Part shown: piece by piece, positions 1 to 47,404 of the stretch | Layout of the letters: the number at the start of each line of letters is the position of its first letter | How positions within the stretch are numbered: position 1 is the stretch's first letter | Assembly: GCA_016180855.1 (NCBI GenBank) | Contig: JACPAL010000002.1 | Location: forward strand, 245,788 to 309,787 | DNA: 64,000 bases | Reading direction: 5' to 3' | Source of the DNA: Deltaproteobacteria bacterium | GTDB lineage: Bacteria; UBA10199; JACPAL01 | Translations under genes and position numbers: made by a program | Notes under the pieces: generated by a model | What the model was told of the DNA's origin: nothing | Seen by the model: only the letters and a program-made list of their open reading frames with translations | Databases searched by the model: none

Positions 1-531
1 TTGAATGGACAGCAGAACAGACCAACCGCCTCTGTCATTGTCCGGATCCGTTCCGAGAGTGATTCCAGTGATATGACAGAGGGGAAAATCCAGCGATTTG
101 TGGCGAATGCGGTTCCATCGCTCAATCCCAATGATGTGACCGTCATTATCTCAAGGGGGGGAGGGCCCAGGACGACCTCCGGCACCCTTTTTCCATCGAC
201 CGGTGGTTCCTCTCTTCCAACAACCGATTCGCAGGCCTCCACCCGGCGTGCGGAAAAGAGCGGCCCTCATGTGGAACTCCTGGGAATCAAGATTCAGGAA
301 GGGTCTGTCGGCAGGATGAGGATTATTTTTATATTTTTGCTCCTGGTCCTGGTCGTCTTGTCGGCAGCCCTTCTCGTCAGTATTGTCCGTTTCAATAAAA
401 TGAAGCTGAGGGTTCAGAAGGGAATGCCTGTGGAGGCGGTCCCTATGGGAGCGGGGCAGCAATTTTTGGGGGGTGGGGAGGCAGCAGGAGGGGGGGCAGA
501 AGGGACATTTGATATAGGAAGAAAGGGTTAA
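1..531 (+). CDS. SctJ/FliF-family inner-membrane ring protein, C-terminal part; the 5' end lies outside the window
   Basis: Ring-building-motif-like segment (VIVRIRSE...NPNDVTVIISRG) is followed by a disordered linker, one C-terminal TM helix (IIFIFLLLVLVVLSAALLVSIV) and a short Gly-rich tail. The tail lacks the FliF C-terminal FliG-binding motif, so the architecture fits SctJ better than FliF. Confidence 0.5.
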   Translation: MNGQQNRPTASVIVRIRSESDSSDMTEGKIQRFVANAVPSLNPNDVTVIISRGGGPRTTSGTLFPSTGGSSLPTTDSQASTRRAEKSGPHVELLGIKIQEGSVGRMRIIFIFLLLVLVVLSAALLVSIVRFNKMKLRVQKGMPVEAVPMGAGQQFLGGGEAAGGGAEGTFDIGRKG

Positions 532-587
532 GGAGGGGCAACTTGAGGGGGTGTTTGCCACGATACTTAGGGTGAAGGGTTAGTTTT

Positions 588-1345: not shown

Positions 1346-1478
1346 CTGACTGCGGTCTCCCACCCTTCAAGGTGGCGACTCAAAACCGCAAGATTTCCCT
1401 CCTTGAAACAGATCTGAAACAAGGCCAATTTAACCATTTGAAAATAAAGTAGTTATTGTCTAGCCTCTTTGGCTCTAT

Positions 1479-1494
1479 TGGCACGAGAACTGCA
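1479..1494 (+). promoter_or_regulatory. candidate sigma-54 (-24/-12) promoter TGGCACG-N4-CTGCA
   Basis: TGGCACGAGAACTGCA has GG and GC 12 nt apart and matches the YTGGCACGrNNNTTGCW consensus except T to C at the first T of TTGC. It ends 27 nt before the ATG of the sigma factor gene. Confidence 0.5.
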
Positions 1495-1520
1495 CACTAA
1501 CGGGGGAGGGGAGGATTACT

Positions 1521-2357
1521 ATGGTCCTGAAGCTGCTCAGCAAAAAGCCAAAGTTGTTTGAATCAAAGCTTGAATCAAAAAAGGAAGAGAAGGGATCGGC
1601 TGGGGCAGGCCACCTCTCCCCAAAAGAACAGAAAGATATCCAGAAGAGAAACAGCCTCGTGGAGCAGTACCTCCCTTATGCCACCTCCATCGCCGGGAAG
1701 GTGATGCAGACGCTCTCTTCGGTTGTCGATTTTGATGATGTCATGTGCAACGCCCGCCTTGGTTTGATTGAAGCGGCCAAAAAATTTGATCCGACCATGA
1801 ACGTCGATTTCAAGACATTCTCTTATTATCGAATCAAGGGGGCGATCTACGACGGCCTTCGCAAGACCGGTTGGATCCCCCGTTCCCTCTACGCCAAGAT
1901 CAAGTTTGAACAGGCGAGTAATGAATATCTGCAATACATGGCTGAAAAGCAGGGGGCGGCGGCCAAGGTTGCGGAACAGGAGATGGGGGAGCTTTATGAT
2001 ACCGTGAATTCACTCGCCTCGATCTACGTTATCTCCCTCGATGCGGCCGAAGACGGACAGGAGATTGAGGATACCAAGAACAAGGATATCGAGCAGTCAG
2101 CGGAATTTCAACAGGTCAAACGACAGATGAAAGAGGCGATCGAGTCGCTCCCGGACAAGGAAAGAAAACTGATCAAGATGTATTATTTTCAGAACAGGAC
2201 GCTGGAGGAGGCGGGGCGCGTATTGAATCTCTCGAAATCCTGGACCTCACGCCTTCACGCGCGTGCGCTCGAAATTTTATTCAAGAAGATACAGACCAAG
2301 ATGAGGACAGGCGTTTTTGAGATGGGGGAGGAACAGCCCAAGAGAGGGGAGGGATAA
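1521..2357 (+). CDS. fliA: FliA/sigma-28 family alternative sigma factor with a roughly 40-aa Lys/Glu-rich N-terminal extension
   Basis: Region 2 aligns with E. coli FliA (LVEQYLPYA...FDDVMCNARLGLIEAAKKFDP...FKTFSYYRIKGAIYDGLRKTGWIPRS versus LWQRYVPLV...DWVPRS). Region 4 HTH matches as well (LPDKERKLIKMYYFQNRTLEEAGRVLNLSKSWTSRLHARAL). A GGAGG RBS is present. Confidence 0.85.
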   Translation: MVLKLLSKKPKLFESKLESKKEEKGSAGAGHLSPKEQKDIQKRNSLVEQYLPYATSIAGKVMQTLSSVVDFDDVMCNARLGLIEAAKKFDPTMNVDFKTFSYYRIKGAIYDGLRKTGWIPRSLYAKIKFEQASNEYLQYMAEKQGAAAKVAEQEMGELYDTVNSLASIYVISLDAAEDGQEIEDTKNKDIEQSAEFQQVKRQMKEAIESLPDKERKLIKMYYFQNRTLEEAGRVLNLSKSWTSRLHARALEILFKKIQTKMRTGVFEMGEEQPKRGEG

Positions 2358-2361
2358 CCGT

Positions 2362-2826
2362 ATGGATCCCGTTATTGCGAAGACATTGACCGAAACAGTC
2401 CGGCCCTCCGGTGAGGGAGCGGCTCCCATCAAGCCCCAAACGGGCCTTGATTTTGACAAACTGCTTCAGGAGCAGATGGGACAGTCGGAGAATACGCAGA
2501 AGATGATTGAAGGGATGTTTGGGACTCAAAGTGAGGGAGGCTCCTCGCTGAAGGTTATGTCGGGAGAGGGCGTGACGGTTGATCCCGACAAGGTGGCGGG
2601 TGCCAAGAGAAGTGATCTTCTGCATGTCTTGAACGACGTCAATCGAAGTGCCCTGCAGATGGACCAGATGATTGAAATGGTGACATCGGGCCAGAAATTC
2701 AACCCCCAGGAGTTGTTGGCGATCCAGGCGGGAGTTTATCAGATCGTTCAGGAAGTTGATTTGACCGGGCAGATTGTGTCGAGTGCGGATCGGGCCCGCA
2801 ACTCGTTATTGAACATACAGATTTAA
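2362..2826 (+). CDS. small T3S-associated protein, possibly SctI/FliE-like inner rod component
   Basis: Start at ATG 2362 sits behind a GGAGG RBS. The C-terminus NPQELLAIQAGVYQIVQ...RARNSLLNIQI resembles C-termini of rod and needle subunits (FliE ends ...RNKLV.AYQEIM.MQV). The call is weak. Confidence 0.3.
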   Translation: MDPVIAKTLTETVRPSGEGAAPIKPQTGLDFDKLLQEQMGQSENTQKMIEGMFGTQSEGGSSLKVMSGEGVTVDPDKVAGAKRSDLLHVLNDVNRSALQMDQMIEMVTSGQKFNPQELLAIQAGVYQIVQEVDLTGQIVSSADRARNSLLNIQI

Positions 2827-2845
2827 GGAGAAGGAGAATCTCAGA

Positions 2846-3841
2846 GTGAAAGACCAGATGAGACAGGAGATGTTGGCGGGAATGGCGTCGGTTCTATCCG
2901 GTGCAGACGGGGAGAAGCTTTTCCGCTTTGCGGCCCCGAAAGAGGAAGAACCATTAAGGCGTCTGTTTCAACGGTATCTCCGGAATCCGGTTGATCGCGA
3001 GGCGCTTCGCCTCAAGCTTGAAAACTGGGAGCGCTTTGGGAAGCGAATGGCGCTCGAGGAGATCCATCCCGGATGGATTTTGGAAAAATTACGTGGAGAG
3101 TCCCCCCGGCTCTTGAGTCTCTTGCCCCATTTTCTCTCTTCGTCCAAGACCGAGGCGCTGCTCCACCAACTTAATTTTGAAGAGCGCCAGTTCATTTCGG
3201 AACCGGCGCGCGACCTCTCACCCGGGCTTCTCGCAGTGGTCCGTTCTTTGATCGAGAAAAAAATTGGAGAGCCCGCTGTCCTCAAGTCGGACGAGCCGTT
3301 CTCTTTCGATCACCTTTCCTGTCTCCGGAGCGGTGATCTTCAGGCCCTCTTCAAGGATCTGGGGCAGGAGGAGTTTTGTCGCGCCTTTGCCCATGTTGAT
3401 GGGCAAATTCAAAGGGCGGTGCTGACCCGGTTTTCATTGGGAGACGTCAGGGAGATTCGGCGTCGGCTCAAGGCGTCTGAATCTGTCACGACAGAAAAAA
3501 GAAGGCAGGCGCAGAGGCACATCCTCTCTCTTTCGTTTGGAGAAGTCTCACCGGACCATCTTTTACGGGATATCGGTTTTTCCGTTTTTGTGCGAGCCGT
3601 CTCATTAGACAAGATCGATTGGGCCGATTCTCTCTGCCAAAAATTATCCGTGACGGATGGCTACGGACTGAAGCGATTGCTCCAGGAGAAGAGGATGAAG
3701 GGGGAAGAGGGGAGCAAGGAATTGTGCGATGAAATTATGGGCCGGCTCTACGTGCTTGCAACGCAGGGGAAGATTCAACGTTATTGGAAGGAAGAGAGGG
3801 AGATCGAGCCGACCGTTTTTTTGCAAGAGGAGAGGATTTAA
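2846..3841 (+). CDS. FliG-like rotor/C-ring protein (331 aa)
   Basis: Length is typical of FliG. EIHPGWILEKLRGESPRLLSLLPHFLSS parallels the FliG EHPQ(I/T)IALIL...L..L. block. FSFDHLSCLRSGDLQALFKDL parallels MFVFEDI..LDDRSIQ.VLREI. GQEEFCRAFAHVDGQIQRAVLTRFS parallels ELALALKGVD..VQEKIFKNMS. The gene sits immediately upstream of the FliH/SctL homologue. Confidence 0.5.
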   Translation: MKDQMRQEMLAGMASVLSGADGEKLFRFAAPKEEEPLRRLFQRYLRNPVDREALRLKLENWERFGKRMALEEIHPGWILEKLRGESPRLLSLLPHFLSSSKTEALLHQLNFEERQFISEPARDLSPGLLAVVRSLIEKKIGEPAVLKSDEPFSFDHLSCLRSGDLQALFKDLGQEEFCRAFAHVDGQIQRAVLTRFSLGDVREIRRRLKASESVTTEKRRQAQRHILSLSFGEVSPDHLLRDIGFSVFVRAVSLDKIDWADSLCQKLSVTDGYGLKRLLQEKRMKGEEGSKELCDEIMGRLYVLATQGKIQRYWKEEREIEPTVFLQEERI

Positions 3842-4477
3842 ATGGCATCCCGAATCATTAAAGGAGAGGGAACGGGAGAGTATTTTGATCCGACCGTTTT
3901 GGAATGGAATTCCGAACGGAAGGTGATTCCCGGAGAATTTTTGACCGCCTCTGAAGAGGCCAGACAGCTGATCCAGAAGGCGAAGGAAGAATCAGCCAGA
4001 ATTTGCAAGCGGGCTGAGGCGGTCCTGGCCGACGCCGTCCGTGAGAAGGAGGAAGAGCGGGAGAGGGGATATCGGGAAGGTTATGAAGAGGGGCAGGCGG
4101 AGTTGGCGGAACGCCTGGTTTCCTTTGAGGCGGAACGTGAAAAGGTGCTGGCCGGCCAGGAGAAAGAGATTGTGGAGATGGTTCTGGAGATTGCCGAGAA
4201 GATTGTGGGGAATCAACTGGAACGCGGAGGGGTCGCCTCGGTTGTTCGCCAGGCGGTTTCCAAGGCGGTTGGAGAGCGGCTTGTTATTCATGTCCATCCC
4301 GATGACCTTCAAATATTGGAAGCGATCAAGGATTTTGGGCCCCTGACACTTCTCGGAGACCCGGCCGTAACACCGGGAGGCTGCCTCATTGAATCGGAGC
4401 TTGGAACGGTGGATGCCCGGCTGGAAATTCAGTGGAAGGCGATTCGGAAGGCGCTTGGGATAGAGGAAGAGAGATGA
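3842..4477 (+). CDS. sctL: SctL/FliH-family stator/ATPase regulator
   Basis: Charged coiled-coil N-terminal half. C-terminal motif GGCLIESELGTVDARLEIQWKAI matches the FliH/SctL C-terminal signature. Its stop overlaps the ATG of the ATPase gene as ATGA. Confidence 0.65.
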   Translation: MASRIIKGEGTGEYFDPTVLEWNSERKVIPGEFLTASEEARQLIQKAKEESARICKRAEAVLADAVREKEEERERGYREGYEEGQAELAERLVSFEAEREKVLAGQEKEIVEMVLEIAEKIVGNQLERGGVASVVRQAVSKAVGERLVIHVHPDDLQILEAIKDFGPLTLLGDPAVTPGGCLIESELGTVDARLEIQWKAIRKALGIEEER

Positions 4478-5790
4478 CAACGATCAATTTATCGAAATAC
4501 AGAAAAAATATCGTTCAGGCGACGACGGTTCAGAACAAGGGGCGTGTGACAGAACTGATTGGTCTCGTTGCGCGTGCCGTTGTTCCAGGGGTCAAGGTCG
4601 GTGAGCTTTGTATGATTCATCCGGGAGGGGAGAAGGAACCGGTTGGTGCGGAGGTGGTTGGATTTCAGGGGAGCGAAGTTCTTTTGATGCCTTTGGGCGA
4701 GCTGGAGGGGATCTCCCCCGGGAGTGAAGTTGTCCCGACGGGCGATTGTCTCAAGGTGAAGGTTGGCCCGAATCTCCTGGGACGAGTCCTCGATGGGCTC
4801 GGAAATCCGATTGATTCCCTTGGGGTTCTGGAATGCGACGAAACTTATCCGGTCCATCGTGAGCCGCCCGATCCGATGAAAAGGGCACGTGTAACGCAGC
4901 CGATCTCTGTTGGTGTGAAGGCAATGGACGGACTGTTGACCGTTGGTGAAGGTCAAAGGCTTGGCATTTTTGCAGCGGCGGGTGTCGGAAAGAGTACCTT
5001 GATGGGGATGATTGCGCGTCACTCGGATGCGGATGTCAACGTGATCGGTTTGGTCGGCGAGAGAGGTCGTGAGGTCCGTGACTTTCTGGAGGTCGACCTC
5101 AAAGAGGATGGGCTTAAAAAGTCGGTGGTCGTTGTTTCCACCTCTGATCAGCCGGCCCTGACCCGTGCCAAGGCGGCTTACGTTACCACGGCGATTGCGG
5201 AATATTTTCGCGATCAGGGGAAGAAGGTCTTTTTAATGATGGATTCGGTGACCCGCTTTGCCCGTGCCCTGCGCGAGATCGGACTCGCAGTCGGCGAACC
5301 ACCGGCCCGTCAAGGTTTTACACCGTCTGTTTTTTCAACACTGCCCCGGTTGCTGGAGAGGACCGGCAATTCAGACAAAGGGTCGATCACCGCCTTTTAT
5401 ACGGTCCTGGTATCGGGGGATGACATGAACGAGCCGGTCGCGGATGAGACGCGGGCGATTCTCGATGGACATATTGTCCTTTCGCGAAATCTTGCGGCGC
5501 GGAATCATTTTCCGGCGATTGATATCTCCGAGAGCATCAGCCGCGTCATGAGCACGATTGTTGACGCCGAGCATCTGGAGGCGAGCCGGAAGTTGCGTGA
5601 GGTCGTCGCCAACTACGAGAAGGAGCGGGATCTGATCCTGATCGGTGCCTATGAGGCCGGGAGCGATCCGCGTGTCGACTACGCGCTCGAAAAGATTGAA
5701 GAGGTAAACAGCTTCTTGAAACAGGGGATCGATGAGAAGATTTCGATTGAGGAGACGACCGATCAAATGAAAGGGATCTTTGGCGCATGA
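4474..5790 (+). CDS. sctN: type III secretion ATPase (SctN/FliI family)
   Basis: Walker A AAAGVGKSTLMGMIA and Walker B KKVFLMMDSVTRFARA are present on an F1/V1-ATPase alpha/beta fold. The most likely start is ATG 4474 (MTTINL); the ORF track begins at 4432. Confidence 0.9.
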   Translation: MTTINLSKYRKNIVQATTVQNKGRVTELIGLVARAVVPGVKVGELCMIHPGGEKEPVGAEVVGFQGSEVLLMPLGELEGISPGSEVVPTGDCLKVKVGPNLLGRVLDGLGNPIDSLGVLECDETYPVHREPPDPMKRARVTQPISVGVKAMDGLLTVGEGQRLGIFAAAGVGKSTLMGMIARHSDADVNVIGLVGERGREVRDFLEVDLKEDGLKKSVVVVSTSDQPALTRAKAAYVTTAIAEYFRDQGKKVFLMMDSVTRFARALREIGLAVGEPPARQGFTPSVFSTLPRLLERTGNSDKGSITAFYTVLVSGDDMNEPVADETRAILDGHIVLSRNLAARNHFPAIDISESISRVMSTIVDAEHLEASRKLREVVANYEKERDLILIGAYEAGSDPRVDYALEKIEEVNSFLKQGIDEKISIEETTDQMKGIFGA

Positions 5791-6305
5791 AACAGCCTCG
5801 CTATCGATTACAGGTGTTGTTGGATCAGAAGGCCCGGTTGAAACAGAAGGCCGAGATCAGGCTGGCACAGACGATTGCGAGACTGGAGGCCGAAAAGAAG
5901 AGACTTCGCCGGTTTGAAGAGGAGAGGGAGGCGATGATTGCCAAGAGAAAAGAGGTCCGGTTGGAGCTTCACCAACGGGTCTCGACCGGCAAGGCACGGA
6001 TCAAGGATGGGAGTTACGGCATTCATTATTTGAAGAGGCTTGAAGAGGAGCAGAAGCAGAAGGAGGCCCAGATTGAGAATCAGAAACGTCTGATCCTCGA
6101 TTGTGAAACGGAGGTCAAGCGGGCACGCAGAGATTATATCAATGCCGTAAAGGAGTTGCGGATCATGGAGAAGCACAAGGAGCTCTGGTGGAAAAAGGCC
6201 CAGCTGGAACTCTTGCGGCACGAGGAGAAGGAGATGGACGAGCTCGGGAATATCATCCACCAGCTCAAAAAAAGTTTTCAGGGAGAGGACGTTCGACGGA
6301 GTTAA
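5787..6305 (+). CDS. sctO: SctO/FliJ-like coiled-coil stalk protein
   Basis: A 172-aa all-heptad charged coiled coil directly follows the ATPase, as fliJ/sctO always does. Confidence 0.5.
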   Translation: MKQPRYRLQVLLDQKARLKQKAEIRLAQTIARLEAEKKRLRRFEEEREAMIAKRKEVRLELHQRVSTGKARIKDGSYGIHYLKRLEEEQKQKEAQIENQKRLILDCETEVKRARRDYINAVKELRIMEKHKELWWKKAQLELLRHEEKEMDELGNIIHQLKKSFQGEDVRRS

Positions 6306-6308
6306 ACG

Positions 6309-7229
6309 ATGACGGACTCGATTAACAATAATAACTATGACGATTCAGTGCCGAGGGGTACGTACCAGATTCGACCCGAGACGCTGAACCGGAGCGGGCG
6401 GTTGATCGTCAGTAATGCGCCGGCTCCCCGCTACTCCAAGGCCTCACCGCAACCGTTTCAACAGGTCATGGATAACCTTCAGGAGAATCGGACCGCGACA
6501 GTCGATCCCTCCTTGCAAAAGACGGAAACAGCGACCCCGGAATTGACGCAAGCCGCGACGACAGAAGCGGCTGTGCCGATGGACCGCTCTGCCCCTCAAT
6601 CTCGGGAGAACGTTCAGCGGCGCTCCCGCGACTGGGAGTCGGATGCGGATGGCAAGAAGTCTCGTACACAAGCGAGCCACAGTGAACGTCCCAAGTCTCA
6701 GGAGGCGGAACAACGCGTTGTCGGCAGAGGCCCCTTGTCCGAAAGGGGACGCGACCAAAAGGGGCAGGGTCAAGGAAAGGAGAATTCCAATTCTTCGCGG
6801 GGGGATCATCTCAAGGCGTTTGTTTTACCGGCCCACCTGAAAGGGTTGGGTAAGGGGAAGATTCAGGAATTGGGGCAAAGCGGTTTTCTGCAGCAATTGA
6901 AACAGACCCAAACGGCCGACTTTTCGAAAAAGGTCCATCAACCAACGGTTTTTTCGAAGGCACTCCTGGATCAGATCGTCCATTACGTCAAACTCCTTTC
7001 AAAGGCGGATGGCGAGAAGGAGATGGATATCTCGCTCCATGAGAAAGTCTTTAAGGGGCTTCGTCTCCGGGTGGCAACGAACCAGTCCAGGATTGAGGCG
7101 ACCTTCCTCACAGAATCTGAATCGGTGCGCGAACTCTTCCTCGCCAGAAAGGGTGAGATTGAGAAGGCGCTGGCGGAAAAAGGGATTGATGTTCGCAAGA
7201 TAGATGTTACAATGATTCAGCGTGGTTAG
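6309..7229 (+). CDS. SctP/FliK-like length-control (T3S4 domain) protein
   Basis: Low-complexity Ser/Thr/Gln/Arg-rich N-terminal two thirds. The C-terminal MDISLHEKVFKGLRLRVATNQSRIEATFLTESESVRELFLARKGEIEKALAEKGIDV fits the FliK/YscP C-terminal T3S4 domain (..L.L.P..LG.V.V.L...G.L.V.F.A......L....L...L). The position between fliJ and fliM homologues also fits. Confidence 0.45.
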   Translation: MTDSINNNNYDDSVPRGTYQIRPETLNRSGRLIVSNAPAPRYSKASPQPFQQVMDNLQENRTATVDPSLQKTETATPELTQAATTEAAVPMDRSAPQSRENVQRRSRDWESDADGKKSRTQASHSERPKSQEAEQRVVGRGPLSERGRDQKGQGQGKENSNSSRGDHLKAFVLPAHLKGLGKGKIQELGQSGFLQQLKQTQTADFSKKVHQPTVFSKALLDQIVHYVKLLSKADGEKEMDISLHEKVFKGLRLRVATNQSRIEATFLTESESVRELFLARKGEIEKALAEKGIDVRKIDVTMIQRG

Positions 7230-8148
7230 ATCCCCCAATATTGTACCGTTTGATTTCGGGAAACTTCCCCACATCGGGGCGGCTGAGGTATCTCTGATCA
7301 ACGCCTTTCATCGTTTTTTCCCGTCTCATGCTACCTCGGATGAGCTGAAACAGTCTGTCCAGGAGTTGCTTCACGAAGAGCTTGGCTCCGACTTTTCATT
7401 TCATGTCGAGAGGGTCGAATCACGGCCGATGGCGCAAGTGTTGGAAGGGCTCCCCCGCCTCGGGATCTTTCTCGTGATAGGACTTCCGCCGAAAGAGGAG
7501 AAGATTGTTGTCGATGTCGATCTCCTGATCGCCCATGCGGTTGTTGATCGTCTCTTAGGGGGGCATGGCGACACCTTGGCACAAACCCGCACCCTTTCAG
7601 AGATTGAAGAGGGGGTCCTTTCCTATCTCATCCTTAAACTGCTCTCCCATTTTTACGACACGATGGGGGCGTCTCCGCGGGTTCATTTTCGTCTGTTTGA
7701 TTTTTGTTCCAACACGAACGAACTTCAACCTTATCTGAAAAGTGGGGAGGCGGTTATCGCCTTGACGCTTCAGGTTCGTTTGGGCAGACAATCGGGCTCA
7801 TTCAAGATGTTGATTCCTTCTTCAATTCTTCTTCAATTCTCCTCTGCCGATGATTTCGGGCTTACAGAGGCCGAAAAGAGAGATCGTTCGGAGCGGATGA
7901 ACGCCTTCGGTTTTTTGCCGGCCTCTTTATGGGTCGAGGGGGGGAGGACGACCGTCAGGACCGGAGAGCTCTCTCGATTGAAAGAGGGGGATTTTGTGCT
8001 CCTCGATGAAGGGGGGGGTGATGCCGTCTCGCTCCGAGTTGGTACGGGAGAACGGCGTTCAGTCCGTGGAAAGATTATCTCCAGGGAACGGAAGCTCCAG
8101 GTGCAACTGGAGGAGATTTTCGATGAACATTTTGTGGGGGGGATATGA
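7222..8148 (+). CDS. sctQ: SctQ/FliM-family C-ring protein
   Basis: GTG start. The FliM/YscQ signature LIAHAVVDRLLGGHG is present and the C-terminal region is SpoA-like. Position fits. Confidence 0.6.
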   Translation: MVRSPNIVPFDFGKLPHIGAAEVSLINAFHRFFPSHATSDELKQSVQELLHEELGSDFSFHVERVESRPMAQVLEGLPRLGIFLVIGLPPKEEKIVVDVDLLIAHAVVDRLLGGHGDTLAQTRTLSEIEEGVLSYLILKLLSHFYDTMGASPRVHFRLFDFCSNTNELQPYLKSGEAVIALTLQVRLGRQSGSFKMLIPSSILLQFSSADDFGLTEAEKRDRSERMNAFGFLPASLWVEGGRTTVRTGELSRLKEGDFVLLDEGGGDAVSLRVGTGERRSVRGKIISRERKLQVQLEEIFDEHFVGGI

Positions 8149-8528
8149 AGGAGAAGGATCCCTATCTTTCCGAATTAGATGCGCTTGATACCGATCATCA
8201 GTTTCCCTCTGATGAAGAGGCAACCGATGTCCAGATGGGTCAGCCGCCGCCATTCTCGGAAGAGGGGGCTGAAGGGCCCATCGAGGAGGCTCCCCATGAA
8301 TCGGTCTCGCTCGCCTCGGATGTTCCGGTACAACTCGTTGTGGTGTTGGGGCGAAAAGAGGTGACGGTCAAGGATCTCGTCGATTTTAAAAAGGGACAGG
8401 TTGTGGAGTTGAACAAGGTTGCGAATGAGGCGGTTGATCTTGTTGCGGGAGGGAAGGTGATTGCAAAAGGGGAGTTGGTTGAGATTGAGGGGAAGTTGGG
8501 GGTTCGGATTCTAAAAATGTTAAAATAA
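8145..8528 (+). CDS. FliN/SctQ-C family (SpoA domain) protein
   Basis: VPVQLVVVLGRKEVTVKDLVDFKKGQVVELNKVANEAVDLVAGGKVIAKGELVEIEGKLGVRI is a classic FliN/YscQ C-terminal SpoA domain, preceded by an acidic N-terminus. Confidence 0.7.
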   Translation: MKEKDPYLSELDALDTDHQFPSDEEATDVQMGQPPPFSEEGAEGPIEEAPHESVSLASDVPVQLVVVLGRKEVTVKDLVDFKKGQVVELNKVANEAVDLVAGGKVIAKGELVEIEGKLGVRILKMLK

Positions 8529-8529
8529 T

Positions 8530-8847
8530 ATGGAAGGCACACCCGATTTTGCCGCGCTTTTTATGAAGATGATCGCGGGGCTCGTTTTGGTGCTCGTGCT
8601 CGCGGTTGTTTTTATCCGCTTTATTCTGCCTCGGACCGGATTGGTGGGAGGGCGCTTCTGGGGAAGGAGGGGGCAGGGGATTGAGGTGAAGGTGTTGGAA
8701 CGTGTCGTTCTGGAACCGAAGAAGAGTCTTTACATCGTCAAACTTTTGGAACGCTATTTTCTGCTAGGCTCGGCAGAGCAATCGTTGAATCTGATTACAG
8801 AGCTGTCAAAAAATGAGGGGGAACAGCTTGAAGGCAAAAATAAATAA
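8530..8847 (+). CDS. FliO-like small membrane protein
   Basis: One N-terminal TM helix is followed by IEVKVLERVVLEPKKSLYIVKLLERYFLLGSAEQSLNLI, which matches the FliO core (..ev....lg.k.sl.lV.v.g..lLLGv....i.ll). It lies immediately 5' of fliP/sctR, as fliO does. Confidence 0.5.
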   Translation: MEGTPDFAALFMKMIAGLVLVLVLAVVFIRFILPRTGLVGGRFWGRRGQGIEVKVLERVVLEPKKSLYIVKLLERYFLLGSAEQSLNLITELSKNEGEQLEGKNK

Positions 8848-26272: not shown

Positions 26273-26587
26273 TCATTTTGATAGGATAGATACCGCTGCC
26301 TCTCTCAAGAGACCGACTATCATTGTGTCCGCAATAATCAGGAGGATGAACACGAGGATCGGCGAGAAGTCGATCCCCGTCTTGTAGCGGAGCGATGAGG
26401 GGAGCAATCGGCGTGCCAATCTGAAGCATGGTTCGGTTACCATATAGAGGAAGCGGACGATTGGATTATACGGGTCTGGTCGTACCCAGCTGATAAGCAC
26501 CGCGATGGCGACGATAAAGGTGTACATGTCGATTAAGAAGTCAAGAACTCGCGCAATCGTCTGCAAGAGGTAACCAAGGACGATCAT
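26273..26587 (-). CDS. yggT: YggT-family membrane protein
   Basis: Two-TM YGGT/Ycf19 pattern in the conserved yggS-proC-yggT neighbourhood. Confidence 0.7.
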   Translation of the reverse strand: MIVLGYLLQTIARVLDFLIDMYTFIVAIAVLISWVRPDPYNPIVRFLYMVTEPCFRLARRLLPSSLRYKTGIDFSPILVFILLIIADTMIVGLLREAAVSILSK

Positions 26588-28310: not shown

Positions 28311-30389
28311 ATGGGGGGATCCATGGCACCAAACAACGATGTCCTGAATTACATTCAGGAGCTTCATAATGCACGTCAGTACACCGACCTCAGTTGGAGT
28401 GGCACGATGGAAGAATATTTGGAGATTGTGAGAAAAACTCCCTCTGTCGCCCGGTCGGCCTTCCAGCGGATTTACGACATGATCCTCTTCCATGGATCTG
28501 AGGAGTACATGGATCACAAGAAGAAGGTGAATCGCTACCGGTTCTTCTCGGATCCTCTCGATAACGGTCGGGATGCGATTTTCGGTCTCGATATCCCCCT
28601 CATGAAGTTGGTGAATATCTTTAAGGCGGCTGCTCATGGGTATGGCCCGGAAAAAAGGGTCATCCTCCTGCATGGCCCGGTGGGTAGTTCTAAAAGCACC
28701 ATTGTCAGGCTTCTGAAGAAAGGGATTGAACATTATTCCCGCACCCCTCAGGGGGGAGTTTACACCTTCAGTTGGCTCCGAGGGGATCTCGATCGGTCGT
28801 TGTTCGGTGCCGCCGACCGGTTTCCCTGTCCGATGCATGAAGATCCGTTGCGGCTTATCCCTTCCGATATTCGACAGGAGTTTTTGAAGAAAGTGAACGA
28901 AAATCTGCCCGAATCCCAGAAGGTTCGGGTTGAGGGAGATCTCTGTCCTCCCTGCCGTTTTCTATTTAGGGAGATCAGTGATTATTACCGTGGAGATTGG
29001 ACCAAGCTGGCGAGTCATATCCGTGTGCGCCGGATCGTTCTTTCGGAAAAGGACCGGATCGGCATCGGGACCTTTCAACCCAAGGATGAAAAAAATCAGG
29101 ATTCCACGGAGCTGACGGGCGATATCAATTATCGGAAGATTGCGGAGTATGGGTCTGATTCAGATCCGCGTGCCTTCAATTTTGATGGGGAATTCAACAT
29201 CGCGAACCGGGGGATTGTTGAGTTTATTGAGATGCTGAAGCTCGATGTCGCTTTTCTGTACGACCTCCTGGGGGCCTCCCAGGAACACAAGGTCAAGCCA
29301 AAGAAATTTGCGCAGACCGACATTGACGAAGTGATTATCGGGCACACCAATGAGGCGGAATATCGCAAGCTGCAGAATAACGAGTATATGGAGGCGCTCC
29401 GGGATCGGACCTTGAAGGTTGATGTTCCCTACATTACCAAGCTTCATGAAGAGAAGAAAATCTATGGTAGGGATTTTAATCCGCAACGAATTCAGGGAAA
29501 GCATATCGCACCACATACCATTGAAATGGCGGCGATGTGGGCCGTTCTGACCCGTATTCAGGAGCCGAAGAAGGCGAATCTGACCCTCCTTCAAAAACTG
29601 AAGTTGTATGATGGACAAAAACTGCCCGGTTACACCGAGGAGACGGTGAAAGAACTTCGCAAGGAGGCGATGCGTGAGGGATTGGATGGGATCTCACCCC
29701 GTTACATCCAGGACAAGATCTCCAATACGCTGGTCATGGATCGTGACGAGGGTTGCATCAACCCGTTTATGGTGCTGAATGAACTCGAAAGCGGTCTCAA
29801 GCATCACTCACTGATCAAGAACGAAGACCAGAAGAAGCGCTTTCATGATCTGCTCACGGTTGTCAAAGACGAATACGAGGATATCATCAAGAATGAGGTC
29901 CAGAGGGCCGTTTCGGCGGATGAAGAAGGGATCAGCCGGCTTTGCAGCAACTACATTGACAACGTCAAGGCGTACACCCAGCGCGAAAAGGTGAAAAACA
30001 AATACAGCGGGCAGTACGAGGAGCCTGATGAAAGGCTCATGCGCCAGATTGAGGAAAAGATTGATATCCCGGAAGGGCGTAAGGACGATTTTCGTCGGGA
30101 GATCATGAATTACATCGGTGCCCTGGCTCTGGAGGGGAGGGTGTTTGATTATCGTACTAACGAAAGGTTGTGTCGTGCCCTGGAACTCAAACTGTTTGAG
30201 GACCAGAAGGACTCCCTCAAGCTGGCGAGTATTGTGACGAATGTGGTTGATCCGGCGACCCAGGAGAAGATCGGTGTCGTCCGGAGCCGCCTGATCAAGA
30301 ACAACGGCTACTGTGACGTTTGTGCCAAAGATGTGATGACATACGTCACGAGTATTTTTGCTAGAGGGGATGTCAAGGGGAAGGGTTGA
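28311..30389 (+). CDS. prkA: PrkA-family serine protein kinase (AAA-type)
   Basis: Walker [15 protein letters not shown] with a PrkA N-terminal and C-terminal architecture. Followed by yeaH and spoVR homologues. Confidence 0.85.
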
Positions 30390-30409
30390 TGTAGGGGTGT
30401 TCCACCATT

Positions 30410-31522
30410 TTGTTTATGTTCGTAAAGATTGATACCGATCACACCCGCTTTAAAGAGATCATCCGCGGGAAAATCAAGAAAGAGCTCCGTAAATTTATCA
30501 CAAAAGGGGAGTTGATTGGTCGGGAGGGGAAGGATGTGATCAGCATCCCCCTTCCCCAGATTGAGATTCCTCGATTCGCCTTCGGCTCCAAGCAGATGGG
30601 GGGGGTTGGGCAGGGGGATGGCGAACCCGGCACTGTGATTGGAGTTGGTGAGGCGGAAGGGGGACAACCAAAGGCTGGAAATGAGCCCGGAGAGCATATC
30701 CTCGAGGTTGATGTGACCCTTGAGGAGCTGGCGAAGATTCTGGGTGAGGAGCTGGAGCTCCCCAAAATCGCCCCTAAGGGAGATGCCTCGATCATGGCGG
30801 AAAAAGACCGGTATACCGGTATCAGCACGGCGGGACCCGAATCACTCCGCCACTTTAAAAGGACCTATCGCCAGGCGCTAAAAAGGCAGATCTTAAGCGG
30901 CTCCTATAATCCCTCCCATCCGAAGGTTGTCCCTGTCCGTGAGGATCGCCGTTACCGGGTCTGGCGGGAATCAAAGCGTCCCGAAAGAAACGCCGTCATT
31001 ATCTATATGATGGATGTCTCCGGGAGTATGGGGACTGAACAGAAAGAGATTGTGAGGATTGAGTCGTTTTGGATCGATACCTGGCTTCGCTCCCAATATC
31101 AGGGACTCGAGACGCGCTACATTGTCCACGACGCCGTCGCACGGGAGGTCGATCGGGAGACGTTCTACCGGACCCGCGAGTCGGGAGGGACGATCATCTC
31201 GTCGGCCTACAAACTTTGTCTGGAAATGCTCAAGACGCGCTACGCCTCGTCCGAGTGGAATGTTTACCCCTTCCACTTTTCAGATGGGGATAACTGGTCC
31301 GGAAACGATACCCAGGAATGCCTCAAGCTGCTTCAGGAGGAGATTCTGCCTAATGTGAACGTCTTTTGTTACGGCCAGGTGGAGAGCGAATACGGAAGTG
31401 GGCAATTTTTGAAGGATTTGACGGAGAAATTTCCGAAAGAGGAACAGGTGATTACCTCCAAAATTTCGTCGCGCGAGGCAGTCTATGACTCGATCAAGGA
31501 TTTCTTGGGTAAAGGGAAGTGA
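30410..31522 (+). CDS. YeaH/YhbH family protein (DUF444)
   Basis: DUF444 signature ([16 protein letters not shown]) with a vWA-like C-terminus. Sits between prkA and spoVR. Confidence 0.8.
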
Positions 31523-32865
31523 CATCGATGGATGACTCTACACTGACCCCTGAGTTGGAAGGGTGGCGCCAACGGATTGAGGGATATGCGCGTCATTATG
31601 GTCTCGATTTCTTTGGGGTCGTCTTTGAGCTTCTCGATTGGAACGAAATTAATGTCGTTGCCTCCTACGGAGGGTTTCCCAGCCGGTATCCTCACTGGCG
31701 GTTCGGTATGGAATACGAGCACATGAGTAAATCGTACCGTTATGGGCTTTCCCGTATCTATGAAATGGTGATCAACAACAACCCCTGTTATGCCTATTTG
31801 CTCAAGTCGAACGGGATGATTGATCAAAAAATGGTCATGGCTCATGTCTTTGCGCATGCCGACTTTTTTAAGAACAACGTCTATTTCGCCGGGACAAACC
31901 CTAAAATGATTGATGTCATGGGGAACCACCGGACCAAGGTGCATCGGTATATCGATCGTTTTGGGCTGGATCGTGTAGAGGGTTTTATCGACCGGTGTCT
32001 CTCGCTCGAAAATCTGATTGATATCCACCGGCCTGCCGAGAGGCAAAAAAATGCCAGGCCACCCAAGATGCTGGATGAGAACTCCTTGGAGAGGATGAAG
32101 GGGAAACCTCTCCCTTCGGTGTCTGAGCGAATTCCACTTCAACCGGAGAGGGATGTTCTCTTGTTTATTCGGAACCATGCCTCTTTAGAGGAGTGGGAGA
32201 GGGATCTCGTGACCATGATCAGGGACGAGCAGCTTTATTTTGCTCCTCAGGCGCAAACGAAAATCTTGAATGAAGGGTGGGCCGCCTATTGGCATTCAAA
32301 AATAATGACCGAAAAGGTGTTGGATGACAGTGAGATAATTGATTATGCCCAACATCACTCGGCGACAGTTTCCCCCCAGCCTGGAAAGCTCAATCCGTAC
32401 AAGCTTGGCATGGAGCTACTCAGGGATGTTGAGCGACGGTTTGGTCATGAGAAAATATTCAAGGTCAGGGCCCTCCACAACGACCTGACCTTTATTGATG
32501 AATTCTTGACGGAGGAATTTTGTGAGGCCCAGAATTTTTTTGTCTACGGATTTAATCAGGCCAATGGGACGTATGAAATCACCGATCGGGACTTTAAAAA
32601 AGTCCGGGAGAAGCTCCTTGTGAGTCTAACCAACATGGGGGCGCCGATTGTCCAGGTGACGGATGGGAATTATGGGGGGCGTGGCGAATTAGGCCTCAAG
32701 CATCTGCATGAGGGGGTCGATCTTCGGCTTGATTGGGCCAAAGAGACCCTCTTGAGCCTGCAGGCACTCTGGAAGAGACCGGTTCATATCGAGACAATTG
32801 TTGAGGGGATTCCAAAATCATTTTCGTTTGATGGGGAGGAGCACCACGAACAGAGGATGACCTAG
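31519..32865 (+). CDS. SpoVR/YcgB family protein
   Basis: SpoVR family N-terminal region ([21 protein letters not shown]). Third member of the prkA-yeaH-ycgB triad. Confidence 0.8.
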
Positions 32866-41888: not shown

Positions 41889-41961
41889 AATAACTTACAG
41901 ATCGGCATTGGGAAAGCCTTGGCATGTCTATTGCTCATTTGACTATCTATACAGGGGCTTT

Positions 41962-44100
41962 ATGAGGCTAGGCCAGATCTTCTTCATCCTTTTTTTGTTA
42001 GTAAGACCTCTCCTCGCGGAACAATCTTTTCGAGCAGGTCAAGATTCGCAACGTCCAACGACAATCTCTCCGGCACTCGGCCAAGGCGTGAGCGAGATCC
42101 GGTATAACCAGATCAAGACGCCGCAGTTTCTTTTTGAAGAGATTTTACCGGAGGCCTCGATCTTGAACGGTGGTCTGGGGAATGGGAGAGGGGGAAATCC
42201 CGATCCATCCTACTTTTGCAGCGGTCAGGATGAGGTGATTGCCTACCGCAGGCAGATGGGGTTAGGCGGAGCAGAAGAATTTAATCCAAATGTGGGGGCG
42301 GGAAATCAGGGCAGTTATAGAGTGGCCCGGATTATTGATCGCTGTCGGACAGAAGGGGGCTGTGGTTCCGTTCCGGCGGATGGAAAATCATTTCTCATTG
42401 GCTCTCCCAAATATGCAACGAACTGTCACCCGTGGGGGGAGGGCCGGTTTTGGGACAATACGGCGCTTCAGAGCCCAAGCGTTCGTGAGAATTCTTTCAG
42501 CACTCCACCGAATAACCCCCTCCATTTCCGCTGGTCCTGGAGGAACTATATCGATGATGGAAAAAGCCTCCTGTTTGGCCGGTACCTTTTTCACCAATTG
42601 GCAGAGAACCTCACGGGAGACCGATTAAGAACCGAGGCGGTGAACCGGCTCTCCCTCCGGATGAATGCGACCAACCGGTATGGAAGGGACGAGGCGGATC
42701 CTTATCTTGTTTATGCAACCCCTCCGCAATTTCTGGATATCCCGTATAGTCTGGATCATCTCACCTGGGGATTTACCTGTGCGGAGATTGCCAGGAACGG
42801 TGGTTACCAATCGAACCCCGTTTTTAGGGGTCGAAGCTGGGCGGCCACTGGAAGAGATCAGGCGATGGACGTGGAGTGGCTTGACCATCACCGAACCCTG
42901 CTCGAATTTGTCCGGGACGATTTAGGGTCCCGAATAGCGCGGAGGGATTTTGGGAATATCTATCCGCGAGTCCCGGGGGATGTTCGAAACGGGTTGACCG
43001 TAAACGAGCGGGGGATAGCAGAGATTGTCGTGAATATCTGGACAATCTTAAACAAGATGCTCTCGCGCGTGGAGTGGGGAGCTTGTACCGATGCGACCTG
43101 CCGGGCGCGGCAGCGGTTCCGCTCCCTGTTTGGGTTAAGAAGGATCGAGATCCGGAGCTGTCGTGAGTTAGCCGGCGGCTCCCTCGTCGATTACCGCCAC
43201 GAGGAACGGCTGCTTTGTGTCAAATCCGAGATAGCGAGCGATTGCCACAGCAAGCGGGCGAAAGAGGCCGACTCTCATTATAATGTTCATGGGGAGGGGC
43301 TCTGGGGGGCTGCGGGAAGATGTTTCCTTTCTTATGGGGAATGGCGGGGTGGCGGAATCTACGAGCGGGCGTATGAGACCGCTCAGGGGTACCAGCTCCG
43401 GGATCGTGGGGAGACGATCGGTGCGATCCATGGGAACGTCGGTTATCGGTCACCGGATGGTTACAGCCCCGTGATCGCCTCGTTGATAGCTCATCAATTG
43501 GTTCATGCCTATTTTCAAAGGGAGCTGGAGATGAACCGGATGATCGGTTGGCCAAACAACCCGGAGGCACTCTACGAGGAGGAGCTTGCCGTGATGGCAC
43601 AGGCGGCGGTCTTCACGCATCTGCGCTGGATGGGGTATGCCGACAAGACATTTAAAATGGAGAAGGAGGGGTTTATCCGATCGATCACGCGTGCGACGCC
43701 GGGGAATCGGAACTCCCGTGTGGTCGATGCGACAATGGGGGAACGGTTTTTGTATCCACAGGGGTGTCGTGGGTATGGCGGGATTTTTTTGGGCCCCTTT
43801 TGCGCCAACATGAGATCGATCTACAGTGCACTCCGGAACGAACGGAATCCGGAATTGGCGCGTATGCTGGCGCTCTACCATGCGAAGGGGCCGACGCTCA
43901 CGCCACCGGCACGGATGATGGTGAATGGTCAGGACCAGGCGTTTCGCCTCGCGAGCGATCAGGCTGAGGTGATTCAACCGGATGCCGGGCGAATGCAGCA
44001 GATGAGGGAGGGGGAACAGAGGATGCAGGATTCCTCCCCCACCCCTGAAGAGATGTCGGATGACCCGCAACCGTTCCGGTTTGAGGGAGACGTAGAATGA
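41962..44100 (+). CDS. secreted hypothetical protein (712 aa)
   Basis: Signal peptide MRLGQIFFILFLLVRPLLA at ATG 41962. Many Trp/Arg/Cys residues. No recognisable catalytic motif. Confidence 0.55.
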   Translation: MRLGQIFFILFLLVRPLLAEQSFRAGQDSQRPTTISPALGQGVSEIRYNQIKTPQFLFEEILPEASILNGGLGNGRGGNPDPSYFCSGQDEVIAYRRQMGLGGAEEFNPNVGAGNQGSYRVARIIDRCRTEGGCGSVPADGKSFLIGSPKYATNCHPWGEGRFWDNTALQSPSVRENSFSTPPNNPLHFRWSWRNYIDDGKSLLFGRYLFHQLAENLTGDRLRTEAVNRLSLRMNATNRYGRDEADPYLVYATPPQFLDIPYSLDHLTWGFTCAEIARNGGYQSNPVFRGRSWAATGRDQAMDVEWLDHHRTLLEFVRDDLGSRIARRDFGNIYPRVPGDVRNGLTVNERGIAEIVVNIWTILNKMLSRVEWGACTDATCRARQRFRSLFGLRRIEIRSCRELAGGSLVDYRHEERLLCVKSEIASDCHSKRAKEADSHYNVHGEGLWGAAGRCFLSYGEWRGGGIYERAYETAQGYQLRDRGETIGAIHGNVGYRSPDGYSPVIASLIAHQLVHAYFQRELEMNRMIGWPNNPEALYEEELAVMAQAAVFTHLRWMGYADKTFKMEKEGFIRSITRATPGNRNSRVVDATMGERFLYPQGCRGYGGIFLGPFCANMRSIYSALRNERNPELARMLALYHAKGPTLTPPARMMVNGQDQAFRLASDQAEVIQPDAGRMQQMREGEQRMQDSSPTPEEMSDDPQPFRFEGDVE

Positions 44101-46700: not shown

Positions 46701-46855
46701 TGGGCACCTCGAAAAACTACCCATCTGCTGTGTTGCCCGCTTCGGCCGTGTCCTCACGTACCACGAAAGTACCCTCCGGTCGCGGCCTTGAGGGCGCCTT
46801 GCATCTGGGCCGTTTTTCGGGGTGCCCGAAAATTTGCATTATTAGGGGTTCCCTG

Positions 46856-47404
46856 GTGAGATTTTTATTATTGATCGGGATGTTTTTAAATCTCCTCACA
46901 CCTCCCCTGTGGGGTGCTGGGGATCCGGTCGAAGGATTCCGGAAGAGATATCTCTCACGGGAATTTAGATATGAAAAGGAGATGAGTCTTGAGGCCAAGG
47001 ACGGTTTTTTTCCGATTCGTGGCGTTCCTAAAAAGGAAGGAGAGGGGGCTCTCGCCCCGAAGATCATCAAACCAACCATTGCCGTCTTTACGACCAATCT
47101 CGATTTTGAAGGGGTGAGGCGGATGTTTCAATTAAAGAAGGTTGAACTGGAGTTGTGGGACAAAGAGGCGGCGCAAAAACAGAGGGTGAAGCGGCCGCCC
47201 CTCGGTGAAACGAGGGAGGGGCAGGATCATTTGAAGAATCGATTAGAGATACCGAATTACCAGAGCGGTTCAGTCCGGATGGAGGATGGGTCGATCCTCC
47301 TGCTGAAAAGCCATTATTACCACACCAAGGATAAGACCTGGATCAAGAAGACAACAGTTACCTGGATTGGTGTTCCCCCATCACCGTCTCAAACGGTTCA
47401 TTGA
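46856..47404 (+). CDS. small secreted hypothetical protein
   Basis: In-frame GTG gives MRFLLLIGMFLNLLTPPLWGAG, a signal-peptide-like start. The ORF track start at 46595 would overlap the previous gene; the true start is uncertain. Confidence 0.35.
   Translation: MRFLLLIGMFLNLLTPPLWGAGDPVEGFRKRYLSREFRYEKEMSLEAKDGFFPIRGVPKKEGEGALAPKIIKPTIAVFTTNLDFEGVRRMFQLKKVELELWDKEAAQKQRVKRPPLGETREGQDHLKNRLEIPNYQSGSVRMEDGSILLLKSHYYHTKDKTWIKKTTVTWIGVPPSPSQTVH

Follow-up and report, generated by a model that had tools for sequence, protein, structure and literature searches.

A probable sigma-54-dependent promoter at the head of a flagellum-like type III secretion operon, and a proposed two-step sigma cascade, in an uncultured deltaproteobacterial lineage

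How might a non-flagellar type III secretion system that carries its own sigma factor gene be switched on? That question is raised by a stretch of 64,000 nucleotides from a deltaproteobacterial genome (contig JACPAL010000002.1 of assembly GCA_016180855.1, positions 245,788 to 309,787; this whole stretch is termed the window, and positions are counted from its first base), in which a gene for a FliA/WhiG-like sigma factor heads the core operon of such a secretion cluster. An earlier note, made from the letters of the window alone, had claimed that a near-consensus sigma-54 promoter lies directly upstream of the sigma gene, and had proposed a cascade in which an enhancer-binding protein acts through sigma-54 on that promoter and the resulting sigma factor then acts on sigma-28-type promoters. 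We consider it quite likely, on the comparative evidence described below, that the element at 1479..1494 is a functional sigma-54-dependent promoter, with the proposed cascade as the best explanation of its surroundings.

The element, TGGCACGAGAACTGCA, places a GG at positions 1480-1481 and a GC at positions 1492-1493 of the forward strand, and thereby displays the canonical 12-nt register that the earlier note had read from it. It agrees with the extended consensus TGGCACG-N4-TTGCW at 11 of 12 specified bases, the sole mismatch being a C for T at 1491, and lies within a 175-nt non-coding gap (1346..1520) that separates a 120-codon open reading frame (orf120) from the 278-codon sigma gene. The distance to the ATG at 1521, given earlier as about 27 nt, was likewise borne out (26 nt lie between, such that the ATG begins 27 nt past the last base of the motif), and a GGAGG ribosome-binding site is found in that interval at 1510-1514. 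If placed at the usual 11-12 nt past the GC, the start of transcription would fall at about 1504-1506, leaving a leader of approximately 16 nt that would still hold the ribosome-binding site. Neither a sigma-70-like promoter nor a terminator-like site was found in the gap, and its sequence matched no Rfam family and displayed nothing unusual in RNA folding (z-score 0.01). The frequency of such motifs in the window depends strongly on how they are defined: the bare pattern GG-N10-GC is uninformative (571 occurrences versus 559 expected), while the extended consensus with at most one mismatch occurs three times versus 0.30 expected, a count reached by none of 100 shuffles, and the form typical of the lineage, TGGCAY-N6-TGCA, occurs once upon both strands (128 kb of strand; 0.07 expected), at 1479..1494 itself.

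The promoter is considered real mainly because of its footprint in orthologous loci. A single scan of species-representative genomes returned 63 loci, from metagenome-assembled genomes of the same uncultured lineage (labelled Deltaproteobacteria, some of them named UBA10199), that encode a sigma orthologue of 54-84% identity, together with 17 loci from Archangium/Myxococcaceae in which the sigma protein is about 40% identical. The promoter was counted in the 58 of the 63 loci that provide at least 225 nt of upstream DNA, across the 330 nt before the conserved core. In 57 of these 58 loci exactly one TGG-N9-TGC was found, invariably on the coding strand and shortly before the start codon of the sigma gene (mostly 23-70 nt away), and a TGGC-N8-TGC(A/T) stands at the equivalent place, again in 57 of 58. 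When the loci were aligned on that site, position 4 was a C in 57/57 and position 16 an A in 56/57, neither of which had been required by the search; positions 5, 6 and 7 (A in 50/58, Y in 50/58 and R in 53/58, with the window counted) likewise match the sigma-54 consensus, and these too were not imposed by the search. The columns flanking the -24/-12 motif carry less than 0.5 bit. Across 435 kb of related loci, TGGC-N8-TGCW was found 89 times, 58 of them at the promoter position of the sigma gene; the 31 other sites, spread over 870 kb of strand, correspond to a background of about one per 28 kb, from which 0.012 would be predicted per 330 nt. On these comparative grounds the conserved bases are a phylogenetic footprint of exactly those that are read by sigma-54, and the claim of a near-consensus promoter stands, with one mismatch and with unconserved flanks.

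The product of the first gene behind that promoter is a member of the sigma-70 family for which 785 homologues were found. It is encoded in the metagenome-assembled genomes GCA_016202325.1 and GCA_016187815.1, which are labelled Deltaproteobacteria. Its best NCBIfam matches are WhiG (8e-44) and FliA_WhiG (1.8e-43), and its best matches in the PDB are Streptomyces WhiG (6pfj) and FliA (6pmi and 1rp3). Its score of 148.9 bits lies below the curated TIGR02479 cut-off of 189.6 bits; by profile comparison it is FliA/WhiG-like, divergent, and no certified member of the family. The structural alignments begin only at residues 33-41, which corroborates the N-terminal extension that had been described earlier; the description of that extension as unusual did not hold, for its length resembles that of Streptomyces WhiG, and its sequence is not conserved among the sigma homologues.

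The sigma gene is the first gene of the core operon in this non-flagellar type III secretion cluster. The genes that follow it encode, in order, sctI-like, FliG_C-like, sctL/FliH, sctN, sctO and sctP/FliK-like products, then FliM-like and FliN-like sctQ, a FliO-like product, sctR, sctS and sctT. Upstream of the sigma gene are found the end of a gene for an SctJ-type lipoprotein (1..531) and two small genes of unknown function, and downstream of sctT are genes for large unknown proteins (12060..19749) followed by TPR chaperone-like genes (19781..21861). Because neither a promoter of the CCGATAA type described below nor a strong terminator was found between 1521 and 10709 (where terminator-like hits are no more frequent than in shuffles), the sigma-54 promoter most likely drives the whole operon from the sigma gene to sctT (1521..10709), rather than the sigma gene alone, and the genes from 2362 to 10709 would be co-transcribed with it.

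The composition of the cluster is a mixture of flagellum-like parts (the FliG_C-like gene at 2846..3841, separate FliM-like and FliN-like genes at 7222..8148 and 8145..8528, and a FliO gene before sctR) and of injectisome-type parts (SctJ, SctI and SctO). Neither a secretin nor a needle family turned up among the Pfam matches of the window or in the part of the cluster upstream of it (L001 and L003); rod, hook and filament genes were likewise not recognised, either in the window or elsewhere in the fetched parts of the cluster. The neighbours of the sigma gene are non-flagellar secretion genes, and none of the small proteins encoded nearby matched the FlgM family. Between sctT and the next promoter, a DUF4143/AAA_14 ATPase gene (10701..12005, reverse strand) breaks the cluster; the related locus L088 is without it.

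The second step of the cascade is represented by a second class of promoters. Two exact copies of AACTC-N15-CCGATAA were found in the window, versus about 0.008 expected for its 12 specified bases; each contains a FliA-type -10, CCGATAA, with a -35 approximately 15 nt upstream, and each stands shortly before a gene for a large protein. The second of those genes is followed by one for a 517-aa protein and then by TPR chaperone-like genes (Pfam TPR). Further AACT-type/CCGATAA copies are present upstream of the window in the same organism (L001 and L003), and approximately 48 sites of the form (G/A)(C/A)AACTT-N-CCGATAA(T) were found in the family loci, on the coding strand, with a ribosome-binding site and start codon within 15-50 nt; in many cases the gene that follows is an orthologue of orf132, the small gene that begins at 588 in the window. 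The -10 of this class, CCGATAA, is identical to that of FliA, while its -35, (C/A)AACTT, differs from TAAAG. The canonical form TAAAG-N14-16-GCCGATAA (at least 11 of 13 positions) was also considered and set aside, since it gave only four matches in the window, all of them intragenic, and the real motif has another -35. The FliA-like sigma factor would be expected to read the AACT(C/T)-N15-CCGATAA promoters, which probably drive the flanking operons, and the large genes of unknown function at 12060 and 16898 are presumed to encode substrates. The only strong terminator-like hairpin of the window (16652..16681, forward strand; a 13-bp stem with 11 G-C pairs and a T-rich tail) is found ahead of the promoter at 16850, in a gap of 535 nt, and marks an operon boundary.

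Upstream of the -24/-12 element, the family loci share a recognizable architecture. Their A+T content at -70 to -20 from the motif reaches 68-74%, versus 51-55% elsewhere, and IHF-like sites that agree at 8 or more of 9 positions are found within this spacer in 54% of the loci, versus 17% of composition-matched shuffles. Farther upstream lies a family-wide, 18-bp imperfect palindrome, TG(G/A)GG-N8-CCCCA, that is matched at 8 or more of 10 positions in 51 of 55 loci, versus 1 of 55 control regions, and is exact at this place in 13 loci. Its centre lies a median of 118 nt (range 73-168) before the T of the -24 element, or about -143 from the predicted start; the earlier note had suggested a search for enhancer-like inverted repeats upstream, and the copy of this palindrome in the window is degenerate. 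The A at position 3 of the palindrome is uncompensated at position 16 in 13 of 14 cases, and because compensatory pairing is absent the palindrome is interpreted as a motif at the level of sequence rather than as an RNA hairpin. The distances between palindrome and promoter display their strongest period, among those of 7-16 bp that were scanned, at 10.6 bp (R = 0.49, n = 51), a value that is never attained when the distances are jittered by up to 6 bp (p below 0.001). Two other candidates in the gap were rejected: a window-specific imperfect palindrome at 1401..1424, as an enhancer, for lack of conservation in relatives, and an RNA element or terminator, on account of the Rfam and folding results, the absence of a terminator-like site in the gap and the uncompensated changes in the palindrome.

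A candidate for the protein that might bind there is encoded at the same locus. The earlier note had identified an FHA-domain, sigma-54 enhancer-binding protein with an intact GAFTGA loop, and that identification is upheld by its Pfam matches and by a reading of its motifs, which comprise GETGTGKE (Walker A), ESELFGHVKGAFTGA (the GAFTGA loop) and a Fis-type helix-turn-helix. Its orthologues are 65-83% identical, and the recognition helix, IDRKH(L/I)RNLLKKY, is invariant in 17 of them, which fits a conserved DNA target. Many of these orthologues are encoded on contigs equal in length to contigs that bear a sigma orthologue (21.9 kb to 2.4 Mb). The genes orf134, kinase and FHA activator converge on the TPR and secretion genes of the window; in L088 a small open reading frame, kinase and FHA activator converge on TPR-368aa-TPR-322aa-sctT-sctS-sctR-fliO-sctQ and onward, and in L089 the series yggS-proC-yggT-small open reading frame-kinase-activator converges on TPR-289aa-TPR and onward, as it does in the window. 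Judged by gene order, the kinase-FHA activator module is a conserved flank of the secretion cluster. The kinase is presumed to provide the input to the FHA domain, and control of the activator would then depend on phosphorylation.

Two candidate elements upstream of this module were tried and not adopted. The sole perfect copy of TGGCACG-N4-TTGCW in the window, TGGCACGCCGATTGCT (26403..26418, reverse strand; 0.01 expected), precedes by about 300 nt the genes for orf134, the kinase and the FHA activator, and was considered as a sigma-54 promoter for positive autoregulation of their operon; it is situated inside the coding sequence of yggT, has a counterpart only in L089 (with two mismatches, at a non-homologous position of yggT), and was not found in any other locus where the sequence before the kinase gene can be read. 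A shared element, TGGTGACAAAAGTCCC, upstream of orf134 is found only in the four closest relatives, and may be sequence that has not yet diverged. A PrkA-DUF444-SpoVR triad (28311..32865, forward strand) adjoins the yggS-proC-yggT genes, and PrkA is also found near the kinase-activator module of L089.

The third sigma-54-like site of the window, TGGCATGTCTATTGCT (41920..41935, forward strand), has one mismatch and is intergenic, ending 26 nt before the ATG (41962) of a gene for a 712-aa protein with a signal-peptide-like N-terminus. That gene is the first of three without a Pfam match (712, 867 and 269 aa; 41962..47404) that lie between trpD and trpC, and this insertion splits an otherwise contiguous trpE-G-D/trpC-F-B-A operon.

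Taking the motif, its conservation, the surrounding architecture, the second promoter class and the gene linkage as the observed parts, the mechanism proposed for this locus would be as follows: (i) an enhancer-binding protein, most likely the local FHA-domain protein under the control of the adjacent membrane Ser/Thr kinase, would bind upstream of the promoter, most likely at the 18-bp palindrome; (ii) it would reach the closed complex of the sigma-54 holoenzyme by looping over the A+T-rich, IHF-like spacer, and would spend ATP to open the promoter; (iii) transcription would start about 16 nt before the ATG of the sigma gene and probably run through the export-apparatus operon to sctT; and (iv) the new sigma factor would direct RNA polymerase to the AACT(C/T)-N15-CCGATAA promoters, which would serve the remaining operons of the secretion system as well as the genes for presumed substrates and chaperones. 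Comparative evidence supports each of the two promoter links in the cascade that the earlier note proposed; that the FHA protein is the activator is a step that we infer, and we give it about an even chance or slightly better. The coordinates of these features are collected in the table.

Table. Positions in the window of the promoter elements, upstream elements and genes that are discussed in the text.
Feature	Position	Strand	Description and basis
Sigma-28-type promoter, degenerate: AACTT-N15-ACGATAC	540..566	+	21 nt before the orf132 ATG at 588; 3 mismatches to AACTC-N15-CCGATAA
Palindrome, window copy, TGGCGACTCAAAACCGCA	1373..1390	+	Candidate enhancer (upstream activating sequence); 8/10; centre about 98 nt before the -24 T
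Window-specific imperfect palindrome, CCTTGAAACAGATCTGAAACAAGG	1401..1424		Two TGAAACA repeats; no conserved counterpart in relatives
IHF-like site, AATAAAGTAGTTA	1443..1455	+	8/9 specified positions of WATCAANNNNTTR, in A+T-rich tract; putative binding
Sigma-54 type -24/-12 element, TGGCACGAGAACTGCA	1479..1494	+	Sequence, window enrichment, conservation in 57/58 loci
FliA/WhiG-like sigma gene, 278 aa	1521..2357	+	First gene behind the promoter; sigma-70 regions 2 and 4 by Pfam
Tightly packed genes after the sigma gene, up to sctT	2362..10709	+	Gaps of at most 20 nt; Pfam, gene table
Sigma-28-type promoter, exact: AACTC-N15-CCGATAA	12006..12032	+	27 nt before ATG 12060 (1027-aa unknown protein)
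Sigma-28-type promoter, exact: AACTC-N15-(G)CCGATAA	16850..16876	+	21 nt before ATG 16898 (433-aa unknown protein)
FHA-domain sigma-54 enhancer-binding protein, 468 aa	21830..23236	-	Candidate activator; PF00158 (3.9e-70), HTH_8, FHA
Ser/Thr protein kinase, 815 aa	23255..25702	-	Five PEGA domains; directly upstream of the activator gene; Pfam

A number of observations weigh against this explanation, and they bear on its several parts to differing degrees. A tblastn search with Escherichia coli RpoN found nothing in the window or in the 86 fetched loci; both the conservation of GAFTGA activators and the footprint itself would lead one to expect rpoN in these genomes. The sole exception to the conservation of the promoter, L012, has lost both the spacer and the motif, and its sigma gene lies approximately 25 nt past the upstream gene (L012:3900..3990; the record also shows a run of N within the first part of that gene). 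The copy of the palindrome in the window contains two mismatches and is not significant when considered alone. The helical phasing of 10.6 bp, the first estimate of which is inflated by the relatedness of the genomes, weakens to p = 0.05 when only unique distances are used and gives no signal among the 13 exact copies; it may be regarded as supportive and not conclusive. Copies of the palindrome also occur directly after stop codons in other intergenic gaps of the clusters (L009:751..768, L029:644..661, a 9/10 copy at about L003:2483..2500, and L089:17030..17047), and in L009, L029 and L003 a sigma-28-type promoter follows within about 20 nt, such that the palindrome may be a general operator or an operon-boundary element instead of an enhancer. 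In four loci with a divergent upstream neighbour, where there is nothing to terminate, the palindrome is still kept between the two promoters, which favours its role as an enhancer.

Those same four loci (L054, L056, L062 and L069) are also the source of the alternative that survives best, according to which the sigma-54 promoter is real and is activated by some other enhancer-binding protein encoded elsewhere, such as one of NtrC type, while the kinase-FHA module controls other targets. Inserted between orf120 and the sigma gene in each of them, and divergent from the latter, is a gene for a 456-aa, receiver-domain NtrC-type activator (for example L056:2136..3506, reverse strand), and a -24/-12 element belonging to this activator gene lies 30 nt ahead of the ATG (TGGCATCTAAAATGCT, for instance; in L056 at 3537..3552, reverse strand), so that two sigma-54 promoters stand back to back, on either side of the conserved palindrome. 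This activator is only 39% identical to the FHA protein of the window and has a different recognition helix, and the FHA gene of the window itself lies 20 kb from the promoter that it would control. Set against this, no more than 5 of about 58 loci have an activator gene within 4 kb upstream, Pfam detected a single activator gene in the 64 kb of the window, and the FHA activator is present and cluster-linked across the lineage, with an invariant DNA-reading helix that matches the conserved upstream element. That some other protein takes the place of the FHA activator is possible, if on balance unlikely.

Slightly less probable again, in our estimation, is a reading in which most transcription of the sigma gene is read-through that begins at the sigma-28-type promoter before orf132, as a form of positive autoregulation, with the sigma-54 promoter playing a minor or priming role. 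The orf132 promoter could indeed feed the sigma gene in this manner, and this too counts against the cascade as proposed: the site at 540..566 is weak when taken by itself, the orthologues of orf132 are preceded by an exact CAACTT..CCGATAA, no terminator is predicted between orf120 and the sigma gene, and in L012 the sigma gene lacks its own promoter region and is preceded, at about 900 nt, by a CCGATAA promoter. An autoregulatory loop alone is unable to start itself, however, and the near-universal -24/-12 element, together with its spacer and upstream element, argues for a necessary input at the sigma-54 promoter; read-through would then complement the preferred cascade and not replace it.

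The notion that TGGC-N8-TGCA is merely sigma-54-like, and is in fact the site of another DNA- or RNA-binding factor or a processing signal for read-through transcripts, gains some support from the terminator-free gap, which would permit read-through from orf132-orf120. It is nonetheless improbable: conservation falls on precisely the positions of the sigma-54 consensus (the A, Y and R that follow TGGC among them, with the 12-nt register fixed), the motif lies on the strand and at the distance from the start codon that would be expected of a promoter, activators of the GAFTGA type, which act on sigma-54 only, are conserved in the same loci, and neither Rfam nor RNA folding provided a sign of such an element. 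Finally, a chance match without function, for which it might be said that single matches to a degenerate pattern of 12 specified bases do occur (a perfect one lies inside yggT), is effectively refuted by the recurrence of the motif at one and the same position in 57 of the 58 orthologous loci, against the background rate given above.

With the sigma-54 promoter and the cascade preferred over these alternatives, the arrangement may be compared with several known systems, beginning with relatives outside the lineage. In the Archangium/Myxococcaceae clusters (L070-L086) the 40%-identical sigma gene occupies the same position, in the order sigma, sctI, ..., sctL, sctN, and clusters of this kind have been described as the needleless type III secretion system T3SS* (PMC10433427), which in Myxococcus xanthus (MXAN_2434-2464) serves in contact-dependent lysis of prey (PMC10433427). 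TPR chaperone-like genes are common to T3SS* and to the cluster of the window, and in the parts that were examined neither a secretin nor a needle gene came to light (PMC10433427). In the Archangium/Myxococcaceae loci, the sigma gene abuts the upstream gene, and the spacer, the -24/-12 element, the palindrome and the CCGATAA promoters are all absent. A review of T3SS* never mentions a sigma factor for that system, and leaves open the extent to which its regulation responds to prey (PMC10433427). A literature search on UBA10199 and type III secretion found nothing on the regulation of the clusters of this lineage.

In Chlamydia trachomatis, sigma-54 and the NtrC-type activator CtcC control genes related to type III secretion, in an organism that also possesses sigma-28 (PMC7482065). 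The likeness lies in the use of sigma-54 control by a non-flagellar type III system (in Chlamydia, a basal one); in contrast to the present locus, no cluster-embedded sigma gene behind a sigma-54 promoter has been described there, and both the lineage and the domain make-up of the activator differ.

A parallel in terms of circuit logic is provided by the HrpR/HrpS-sigma-54-hrpL systems of Pseudomonas syringae and Erwinia (Hrp1), in which a sigma-54 promoter that is activated by enhancer-binding proteins likewise precedes the gene for an alternative sigma factor encoded within the cluster, and in which that second sigma factor then drives the promoters of the cluster and of the effectors (PMC3105312, PMC5263251). 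The components themselves are different: HrpL is a sigma factor of the extracytoplasmic function (ECF) type that reads the hrp box, whereas the sigma factor described here is FliA/WhiG-like and is paired with CCGATAA-type promoters; HrpR and HrpS act as a pair that lacks a sensory domain, whereas here a single FHA-domain candidate is encoded beside a Ser/Thr kinase; and the secretion system belongs not to Hrp1 but to a different, flagellum-like family.

In polar flagellates, such as Vibrio cholerae (with FlrA) and Pseudomonas (with FleQ), sigma-54 transcribes class II genes that include fliA, and sigma-28 then transcribes the late genes. The RpoN regulon of V. cholerae has been covered elsewhere (PMC3439928). 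The locus described here resembles that hierarchy in the order of sigma-54 and then a sigma-28-family factor, in the predicted co-expression of the sigma gene with genes of the export apparatus, and in the CCGATAA of its late promoters; unlike that hierarchy, it includes an SctJ-type lipoprotein, sctI, sctO and sctP and no identified rod, hook or filament gene, its late promoters contain (C/A)AACTT rather than TAAAG as their -35, its candidate activator is of FHA type, and no FlgM-like anti-sigma factor was recognised. The finding of the sigma order of polar flagella in a system with FliG-, FliM- and FliO-like parts bears on the evolution of the injectisome from the flagellum, and it may be suggested, tentatively and at somewhat less than even likelihood, that a flagellum-like but non-flagellar type III system has kept the ancestral flagellar hierarchy, in which a sigma-54 'class II' operon with a FliA-like sigma gene at its head precedes 'late' CCGATAA promoters, and the top of which was rewired, via an FHA activator, to a eukaryote-like Ser/Thr kinase. 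If so, regulatory logic, and not just the machine, would have been inherited when injectisome-like systems arose from the flagellum, and the T3SS* relatives in myxobacteria would have lost the sigma-54 step later.

When these comparisons are considered together, the cascade appears to work in the manner of both the HrpR/HrpS-hrpL and the polar flagellar hierarchies, and differs from the known cascades in its use of a FliA-like rather than an ECF sigma factor in a non-flagellar cluster, in its FHA activator and Ser/Thr kinase, and in a -35 sequence of its own. The wiring to which the evidence points would lead from the kinase to the FHA activator, to the sigma-54 promoter, to the sigma factor and export apparatus, and from there to the CCGATAA promoters, which would offer a direct way to list candidate substrates in the genomes of this lineage; it would also add a case of sigma-54 control coupled to a Ser/Thr kinase outside Myxococcus.

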